A stretch of DNA of 64,000 nt from Curvularia clavata (Eukaryota): positions 1 through 64,000 of the forward strand of contig CP089280.1 of assembly GCA_023920165.1 (NCBI GenBank), read 5' to 3'. The position numbers and the translations under genes are program-made. This document shows, piece after piece, positions 48,223-49,178 of the stretch. The notes beneath the pieces were generated by a model. It was not told where the DNA came from, searched no databases, and saw nothing but the letters and a program-made list of their open reading frames with translations. Every line of letters begins with the position of its first letter. The first letter of the stretch is position 1.

Positions 48223-49178
48223 TTACTATCCCTCATATAGCGTTAGTGAAGATGCTTTACTCTAACACTCTAGAGACCAAAGTCAGGTAACGTACACACT
48301 ATACCATAGTAATTAGTTAAGTGTCTTGTATATCTACTGTAGAAATGGATTCGTCCACTTACATTCTACATAATTAGCAGCTGTTAGTAAAGTCTCTTCT
48401 AGGTCTATCATAGAGATAGAGATGTAGTTGTTAAATCTACTTACAACCTATATCGTTGGCAGCTATTAGTAAAGTCTCTTGTAAGTCTACTTTAAAAAGG
48501 TATTAATTCTACTTACACACTATACCACCACTAGCTATTAGTAAAGTCTCTTATAAGTCTATCATAAGAAGGTATCTAGTCTACTTACAACCTATACCAC
48601 TAGCAATTAGCATAGTCTTTTATAAGTCTATAATAGAAAGATATCAGGTCTACTCACACCCTATACCACCAATAGCTATTAGTAAAGTCTCTTATAAGTC
48701 TACTGTAAAATAGTATTAGCTCTACTTACACACTGTACCACCACTAGGTATTAGTAAAGTCTTTTATAAGTCTATTATAAAAACGTATTAGATCTACTTA
48801 CGTTCTATGCCACTAGCAATTAGCATGTTCTCTCATAAGTCTATTGTTAAAGATATTAGATCTACTTACACCCTAAACTATCGTTAGGTGAGTTTATTAT
48901 AGAAATGTATTGGATCCACTTACACACTATACCACCACTAGTTATTAGTAATGTCTCTTATCAGTCTATCATAGAACGTATTAGATGGACTTACAAACTA
49001 TTCCATCAGCAGCAATTAGTAAAGTCTCTATTAAGTGTATTATGGAGTAAGTACTCGTAACCTAACTTACTCCTCTAGCGTTCAGGTCTGTTTCCTGGCT
49101 TTCTTTCTTTGCCTGTGGAACGGCTGCTGCATAGAGCAATGATGGTAAGAATACACTAAAAAGCATAATAAATCTCAT
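48223..49178 (-). CDS. Secreted 47-aa Cys-rich peptide precursor encoded by 13 exons, eleven of them single codons; product MRFIMLFSVFLPSLLYAAAVPQAKKESQETDLNARGFCGNCGVCVNC
   Basis: Exon 1 is 49178-49071 (36 codons). The 3-nt exons are 48997-48995 TTT, 48926-48924 TGT, 48872-48870 GGT, 48804-48802 AAC, 48732-48730 TGT, 48660-48658 GGT, 48591-48589 GTT, 48519-48517 TGT, 48447-48445 GTT, 48365-48363 AAT and 48298-48296 TGT. The last exon opens with TAA at 48225-48223. All 12 introns have a GTAAGT/GTGAGT/GTACGT donor, a CTAAY branch point and a YAG acceptor. Confidence 0.85.
48226..49070 (-). repeat. Diverged tandem array of about 70-bp units (one intron plus one 3-nt exon each)
   Basis: Plus-strand unit resembles CTACTTAC-NNN-CTATACCACCACTAGCTATTAGTAAAGTCTCTTATAAGTCTA... 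Intron lengths are 73, 68, 51, 65, 69, 69, 66, 69, 69, 79, 64 and 70 nt. Confidence 0.92.

Follow-up and report, generated by a model that had tools for sequence, protein, structure and literature searches.

A stretch of 64,000 nucleotides from Curvularia clavata contig CP089280.1 (positions 1 to 64,000 of assembly GCA_023920165.1; in its entirety, the window) carries on its minus strand, at 48130–49255, a locus with an array in which single codons alternate with short introns. We read this locus as a real gene of 13 exons whose mRNA encodes a 47-residue prepropeptide, and we put the probability of this reading at roughly three in four; the data assembled here hold nothing that speaks for skipping of its exons residue by residue, and on these data its product is the full-length isoform. 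The translation most likely stands for a secreted peptide whose four cysteines follow the spacing C-x2-C-x2-C-x2-C.

The 5′ untranslated region extends over at least 49179–49255 (minus strand), an extent taken from a contig of the public run X2 that covers 49077–49255. No ATG occurs in 49255–49178, and the one at 49178 is the first within the contig-supported leader. It opens the coding part of exon 1 (49071–49178, minus; MRFIMLFSVFLPSLLYAAAVPQAKKESQETDLNARG), which was delimited by translation and comprises 108 nt or 36 codons; its end at 49071 is confirmed by a joint in a contig of a second run, X7. Splice signals, alignment, identities and repeat periods divide the adjoining 48226–49070 (minus) into 12 phase-0 introns interleaved with 11 one-codon exons. 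Introns 1–6 lie at 49070–48998, 48994–48927, 48923–48873, 48869–48805, 48801–48733 and 48729–48661, and introns 7–12 at 48657–48592, 48588–48520, 48516–48448, 48444–48366, 48362–48299 and 48295–48226, all on the minus strand; their lengths are, in order, 73, 68, 51, 65, 69, 69, 66, 69, 69, 79, 64 and 70 nt. The donor is GTAAGT in 10 of the 12, GTGAGT in one and GTACGT in another, and every intron has a CTRAY-type branch motif near its 3′ end and terminates in YAG.

The one-codon exons span 48296–48997 (minus). The first six are TTT (48997–48995), TGT (48926–48924), GGT (48872–48870), AAC (48804–48802), TGT (48732–48730) and GGT (48660–48658), and the remaining five are GTT (48591–48589), TGT (48519–48517), GTT (48447–48445), AAT (48365–48363) and TGT (48298–48296). 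Joined, they read FCGNCGVCVNC, the C-terminus of the predicted product, and their order and identity are confirmed by 33 letters of the X7 contig. The terminal exon (48130–48225, minus), known from the cover and the joint of the same contig, consists of the stop codon TAA (48225–48223) and a 3′ untranslated region of 93 nt or more. A preliminary description of this DNA, made from the letters alone, had claimed that all introns are in phase 0, that each internal exon is a whole codon and that the stop has a terminal exon to itself. The gene model bears this out to the base: it holds for 12 of 12 introns, all 11 internal exons have the exact 3-nt size of a codon-sized mini-exon array, the limits 48296–48997 are exact, and TAA opens an exon of its own. 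The last base of every one of the 11 codons is moreover a pyrimidine (T in 10, C in one), also in the glycine and valine codons, where any base would serve, and for this reason position −1 of the donors is almost fixed. Common descent or constraint at that donor position may account for the pyrimidines.

Eleven public runs hold part of the stretch. None of them is on record as RNA, seven were guessed to be RNA (shares 0.05–0.14), X9, X10 and X11 have shares of 0.44, 0.37 and 0.29, and four (X1, X2, X7 and X8) were compared with the region; gaps in the cover of X1, X2 and X7 were not taken as evidence. The X7 contig, 151 nt long at a depth of 4.4, runs through 48130–48225, then 33 letters, then 49071–49090, and lacks everything else of the 845-nt span 48226–49070. 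Reverse-complemented by hand, the 33 letters are TTC TGT GGT AAC TGT GGT GTT TGT GTT AAT TGT, which are the 11 predicted codons in order, identical at 32 of 33 positions, and both outer junctions fall on the predicted bases. A full-length spliced mRNA is thereby shown to join exon 1, the 11 codons and the TAA exon, the RNA nature of X7 being a guess. TTC in place of TTT is synonymous and corresponds to a variant at 48995 that a DNA-like contig of run X8 also carries; because the two share it, the X7 contig derives from a natural variant of the locus and not from the assembly of the window.

Run X8 represents a second isolate, and over 48000–49298 its contig follows the window collinearly, with 10 substitutions (six intronic, one synonymous in the first micro-exon and three upstream of the ATG) and no insertion or deletion. 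The X2 contig, confined to exon 1 and the leader, has a single difference at 49158, synonymous and in codon 7. A contig of X1, from a run guessed to be RNA, covers 48364–48555 in unspliced form and could be either DNA or precursor RNA. Unit number and peptide are thus alike in every source seen, and the coding differences of X2, X7 and X8 are all synonymous.

Read by eye, exon 1 encodes a hydrophobic, signal-peptide-like start (MRFIMLFSVFLPSLLYAAA) followed by a hydrophilic, charged propeptide. The predicted signal cleavage would leave 28 residues, and a predicted cut after Arg35 would leave a 12-mer. There is a single, C-terminal core, preceded by Asn-Ala-Arg, and the precursor contains one Lys-Lys. 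Short cysteine-rich cores are typical of bacterial copper-binding RiPPs (peptides made on the ribosome and modified after translation) too.

The peptide gene has a divergent neighbour of the UstYa/DUF3328 family at 50028–50955 (plus strand), the two ATGs being about 850 bp apart, so that the cluster includes a UstYa gene. Pfam scans, which were run on stop-to-stop open reading frames (ORFs), assign it to PF11807 in two pieces, at 50509–50952 (E 1.3e-23) and at 50007–50432 (E 5e-5, below the curated cut-off). Its exons, read by eye, are 50028–50397, 50458–50542 and 50616–50955, and it contains His-x-x-His-Cys motifs, which we take to be those of the UstYa family. Because this gene adjoins, a role of the peptide as a RiPP is plausible; we regard such a role as possible, and the UstYa-family oxidase next door may act on the peptide.

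The array exceeds chance expectation. The motif YAGNNNGTRAGT, an acceptor and a donor separated by 3 nt, occurs 12 times in the window, 10 of them inside the array, against 2.23 expected from 100 shuffles, the highest shuffle count being 7. Tandem Repeats Finder reports a period of 72 nt (one codon together with an intron of 69 nt; 77% matches, score 457) and one of 213 nt, or three units (85% matches, score 623). Over all 12 introns the mean column identity of the alignment is 68%. Introns 1–11 align as paralogues, with introns 2, 5, 6 and 8 being 81–87% alike; intron 12 barely resembles the others (30–46%), and the outer units are more diverged. Pairs three introns apart are again close (4 and 7, 80%; 5 and 8, 86%; 6 and 9, 81%), and because of these identities and the stronger 213-nt period we conclude that a block of three units was copied, which agrees with the peptide's C-x-x periodicity. 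That the array grew as units of intron plus codon were duplicated in tandem is well supported as history by the paralogy of the introns, and copying of such units, the three-unit block included, would have built it. The codons behind introns 4 and 7 are AAC and GTT, which have no position in common although the two introns are 80% identical; on this comparison, codon change has outpaced intron change in the array.

How would a spliceosome handle sites only 3 nt apart? U1 pairs with donor positions −3 to +6, and U5 contacts the last bases of the exon. Because these footprints span it, each one-codon exon is part of both flanking splice sites, and the closeness of neighbouring sites requires intron definition. 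Adjacent introns would, given the established spliceosome footprints, probably be removed stepwise and not at once. The near-consensus donors and branch sites fit recognition across each short intron. Retention would bring an in-frame stop in 10 of the 12 introns, and the lengths of the other two are not multiples of 3; since retained introns stop or shift the frame, an intact C-terminus can arise only if splicing is complete or skipping is clean. Folding of the entire pre-mRNA does not surpass that of its shuffles (z = −0.09). In eight of the 12 introns, an internal ACTTAT or ACTTAC stands about 30 nt from the intron start (aligned introns within 48299–48994, minus), and the consensus of these eight forms a 6-bp helix between the donor and this ACUUAU/ACUUAC at −1.5 kcal/mol; we rejected the helix as a functional fold, as it is weak and has no compensatory changes.

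Arrays of this kind are found elsewhere. A scan of metagenome contigs for three donors spaced by an acceptor and NNN returned at least 114 loci; several termite-gut contigs with chains consisting wholly of stops were set aside as chance matches. Long chains among the loci listed have 13 (L033), 16 (L061), 18 (L013) and, by eye, about 20 units (L003). In L049 (798–4502, plus), a NACHT/NPHP3_N ORF (798–2408) runs in phase 0 up to a GTAAGT donor at 2265, and behind it come 29 or more units, each about 74 nt long (GTRAGT, CTNAC, a polypyrimidine tract and YAG) and ending in one codon, mostly TTT, CAA or GAA; from its sequence, this locus looks like the published truffle nank type, to which we return below. 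By blastn and tblastx the window locus resembles none of the at least 114 listed loci, and no UstYa match was found in these by the same searches, by tblastn with pieces of the neighbouring genes, whose single hit was a weak one to an M43 motif in L003, or by Pfam on those ORFs of 20 loci that reach 110 aa.

Three regularities characterize the listed arrays. The first is that stop codons are rare, with two in 380 triplets against 18–21 expected, counted over 40 arrays with at least five units and at least three different triplets after shorter, uniform and duplicate loci had been dropped. Secondly, in each of the 34 heterogeneous arrays with six or more units, exon columns are less conserved than intron columns (0.34, 0.36 and 0.54 for the three codon positions against 0.78 for the introns), a comparison that excludes the window and the uniform or near-uniform L010, L038, L060 and L104. 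Because the exons are far more variable than the introns and yet depleted of stops, plain duplication with neutral drift is insufficient to explain such arrays. The third regularity is that the spacing is 3 nt at 304 of 312 junctions in 20 listed arrays, where intron ends and starts were placed by homology alone; the other spacings are 0 (once), 2 (three times), and 6, 9, 10 and 11 (once each). With 304 of 312 junctions at 3 nt, the spacing is kept more strictly than preservation of the frame needs.

Among the codon positions, the third varies least in the listed arrays. Individual loci can be extreme, with intron columns at 0.94 and exon columns at 0.20–0.45 in L007, and 0.97 and 0.40–0.67 in L078. 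Near-identical introns separated by three variable nucleotides are seen in L003, L007, L013, L023, L033, L048, L050, L061, L067, L078, L082, L084, L089, L093, L103, L106, L113 and others. L013 and L089, L033 and L061, L084 and L106, and L007, L041 and L050 have common consensus intron ends and quite different codon strings; because intron ends are shared across contigs while the codon strings differ, one intron family would serve several loci. L078 (1440–2004, plus) has seven 3-nt exons between 97%-identical introns, in phase 2 after a first exon of 8 nt, and this reading yields a complete tiny ORF, MKSLEEKEDLE plus stop, that ends at the contig edge. Going by this reading, such arrays need not be aligned with codons.

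Whether the array of the window serves to vary its peptide was the point of the preliminary description, which held that skipping of any subset of exons keeps the frame and deletes single residues, and that unequal crossover would add or remove units. The arithmetic is sound: because the internal exons are whole phase-0 codons and the stop has an exon of its own, any skipped subset stays in frame, and 1,312 distinct subsequences are possible. Residue-by-residue diversification through exon skipping is thus possible in principle. A diversification cassette, in which varying subsets are skipped to give a family of peptides with differing cysteine spacing and unequal crossover alters the number of units, could draw on all these in-frame products. 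Its donors and acceptors are near-equivalent, so that nothing in the sequence prevents sites from pairing across an adjoining unit; nank genes of Tuber melanosporum are reported, in papers that cite the original work, to splice their codon-sized exons alternatively (PMC9815663, PMC4986451); and the 34 of 34 listed metagenome arrays with exon columns below intron columns would fit selection at the DNA level for varied peptides. Against this, the sole spliced form seen, that of X7, keeps all 11 codons; X8 has the same 12 introns without an indel, and the coding changes of X2, X7 and X8 leave the peptide as it is. Random skipping would moreover be costly, as loss of one of four cysteines leaves an unpaired thiol. 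In our very small sample there is one isoform and a fixed unit number, which is so far the outcome that the preliminary description had named as contradicting it. Its DNA-level part stands as history, since the paralogous introns attest growth by duplication, and finds no support in present variation, the X8 unit number being unchanged; of its splicing part, the frame arithmetic survives. On balance we think it unlikely that the array works as such a cassette.

Two other explanations fare worse. The array might be mainly regulatory, its 12 obligatory splicing steps acting as a gate or delay so that little peptide is made unless splicing is efficient, or the RNA might go untranslated. The consequences of intron retention would suit such a gate, as would the unspliced X1 contig at 48364–48555 from a run guessed to be RNA, and a search among proteins of 22–72 residues gave the peptide no homologue. 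The X1 contig, however, could be nothing more than DNA; starting at the first ATG in its leader, the spliced mRNA reads as a clean ORF with a signal-peptide-like start and an ordered cysteine pattern; and the depletion of stops in comparable listed arrays (two in 380 triplets) argues for translation; we consider a mainly regulatory array very improbable. That the locus is no gene at all, the array being a 72-nt minisatellite that resembles introns (Tandem Repeats Finder does list it as an ordinary tandem repeat) and the joined contig, short, shallow and of a run whose kind is only guessed, either an artefact of assembly or a processed DNA copy, is hardly credible, because an artefact would not cut 12 segments at GT..YAG and keep 11 ordered triplets between the ATG exon and TAA, because X7 is without any array or flanking DNA, and because the DNA-like X8 retains all introns; the units of a plain non-coding minisatellite would not be excised one by one as they are in the X7 contig.

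Several points weigh against the reading as a 13-exon peptide gene and keep our confidence in it at the level given above. Evidence for the spliced form comes from one contig, 151 nt long and of depth 4.4, in a run guessed to be RNA, and contigs, which drop rare variants, put minor skipped isoforms beyond reach. The signal peptide and its cleavage site were judged by eye only. The precursor has neither repeated cores nor Lys-Arg sites, its core has no tyrosine, and the UstYa gene may merely adjoin. A search with a 41-aa query, five in-frame codons from upstream among them, brought up no relative of the precursor in proteins of 22–72 residues, and blastn and tblastx with 46001–53000 of the window found none among the at least 114 listed metagenome loci.

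If the locus is a gene of this kind, it has consequences beyond itself. Gene predictors cannot find such a gene, and a class of small secreted peptides, possibly RiPP precursors among them, may therefore lack annotation. The locus is also a natural test of the spliceosome, which meets donor and acceptor sites 3 nt apart twelve times running. For natural-product mining, it sets beside a UstYa enzyme a candidate substrate with a single, cysteine-rich core, of a kind that the searchable literature does not describe. Should skipping or gain and loss of units be in use, one locus would supply a tunable family of peptides. Across lineages, the triplets of the listed arrays are stop-free as a rule, more variable than the introns and spaced by exactly 3 nt (304 of 312), and under the more speculative view given next these features would point to a dedicated mechanism. 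It could be duplication and deletion of units with selection on the codons, homogenization of introns only, for instance templated by excised intron RNA, or regulated exon skipping. More speculatively, and with considerable doubt on our part, arrays of one-codon exons could be a general device by which fungi evolve short peptides residue by residue, and no peculiarity of truffle NOD-like receptors, used here for the whole core of a UstYa-modified cysteine peptide that is possibly metal-binding or redox-active.

The wider neighbourhood is mixed. Downstream of the peptide gene, 1.7 kb from the array, lies a fragment that matches peptidase family M43 (46165–46503, minus; PF05572, E 1.3e-7, profile positions 70–121 of 152 only). 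In L003, an M43-like ORF (1951–2556, plus) likewise stands beside the array of about 20 units (3695–5019, minus; NLHGFSYVNMDHHDGDHFIP), which was read by eye allowing GTAAAT, GTAAGA and GC donors. By tblastn the two M43 sequences are 51% identical over 35 aa, within the zinc motif only, and the coincidence of peptidase and array may be fortuitous. Pfam further identifies a flavin amine oxidase (54120–55736), a 2EXR/DUF7730 protein, and GH3, OYE, P450 and GH6 genes; the ORFs at 46951–47802 and 52153–52686 and 30-odd smaller ones have no Pfam match, none of the window ORFs scanned matches NACHT, and no additional tailoring enzyme could be placed in a cluster. Exact look-ups in two sets of window proteins found none of three and two of seven; one identical entry belongs to a 90%-identity cluster with proteins of Exserohilum, Pseudopithomyces and Paraphaeosphaeria, which places the organism, at the level of order, as a Pleosporales-like Dothideomycete. 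Weak similarity at 42749–43292 (minus) to a DDE_1 endonuclease (E 0.007) and, with E 0.002, to the DNA-binding domain of a Tc5 transposase, neither reaching its curated cut-off, suggests that a decayed pogo-like transposon lies between the peptide locus and the GH3 gene. Two adjoining ORFs at 8889–9934 (minus) match the T6SS Tle1-like phospholipase catalytic domain PF09994 (E 1.7e-46 and 7.8e-7); by this match they are assigned to a fungal DUF2235-type gene that is unrelated to the array.

Several known systems can be set beside this locus. Isolated 3-nt exons are established: the long-read annotation of Coprinopsis cinerea has, in the part of that report accessible to us, 26 genes with exons of 3 nt, 27 such exons in all (10.1101/2024.05.10.593147), and Drosophila homothorax, as the partly available source gives it, has one 3-bp exon (PMC7392893). 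As far as these sources go, such exons prove that a single 3-nt exon can be spliced and sit in ordinary genes, whereas 11 follow one another here. Our literature search for arrays of 3-nt exons turned up isolated ones only, and the truffle arrays are known to us through citing papers.

The adjacent UstYa gene invites comparison with the UstYa/DUF3328 dikaritins. These include ustiloxin, phomopsin, asperipin-2a and victorin, and according to the accessible portion of PMC10840396 they have repeated cores that are released by kexin at Lys-Arg and cyclized through ether bonds; the same source, to that extent, counts few disulfide-bridged peptides among the characterized fungal RiPPs. Going by that description, the likeness is a short precursor with a signal-peptide-like start adjoining a UstYa-family gene, whereas the repeated cores and Lys-Arg sites of dikaritins are replaced here by a single core after Ala-Arg that has four cysteines and no tyrosine. 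The searchable literature yielded no link of UstYa, DUF3328 or dikaritin with micro-exons.

Schistosome micro-exon genes (MEGs) are the classic model of protein variation by micro-exon skipping. Those of Schistosoma mansoni have exons of 3–81 bp and introns of up to 5 kbp, in the figures of the partly available PMC10526429. On what that source offers, the two systems are alike in deriving secreted products from very short symmetric exons whose skipping keeps the frame. They differ in that all internal exons here are 3 nt and the introns are tandem paralogues of 51–79 nt; the lineage is unrelated, there is no sequence relation, and the likeness is one of analogy only.

The closest counterpart is the family of nank (NACHT-ankyrin) genes in Tuber melanosporum, the black truffle, in which arrays of 3-bp mini-exons were described and alternative splicing was put forward (Iotti et al. 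2012, Fungal Biol 116:261; as cited in PMC9815663 and PMC4986451). To go by these citing papers, both the architecture and the idea of diversification by splicing are already published for these genes. As they portray them, the truffle genes share with our locus many consecutive 3-nt exons, short introns, a filamentous ascomycete as host and a proposal of diversification through splicing. The host gene is where they part, being here one for a 47-residue, apparently secreted, cysteine-rich peptide and not for an intracellular NOD-like receptor (NLR); its product has no NACHT-ankyrin domain. What the array encodes here is neither linker nor recognition tail but the whole C-terminal core together with the stop; in place of a truffle, the host is a Pleosporales-like fungus; and the full-length form is the only one seen. 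What is new here is a codon-sized exon array outside truffles, in the gene for a tiny, predicted secreted cysteine peptide beside a UstYa gene.

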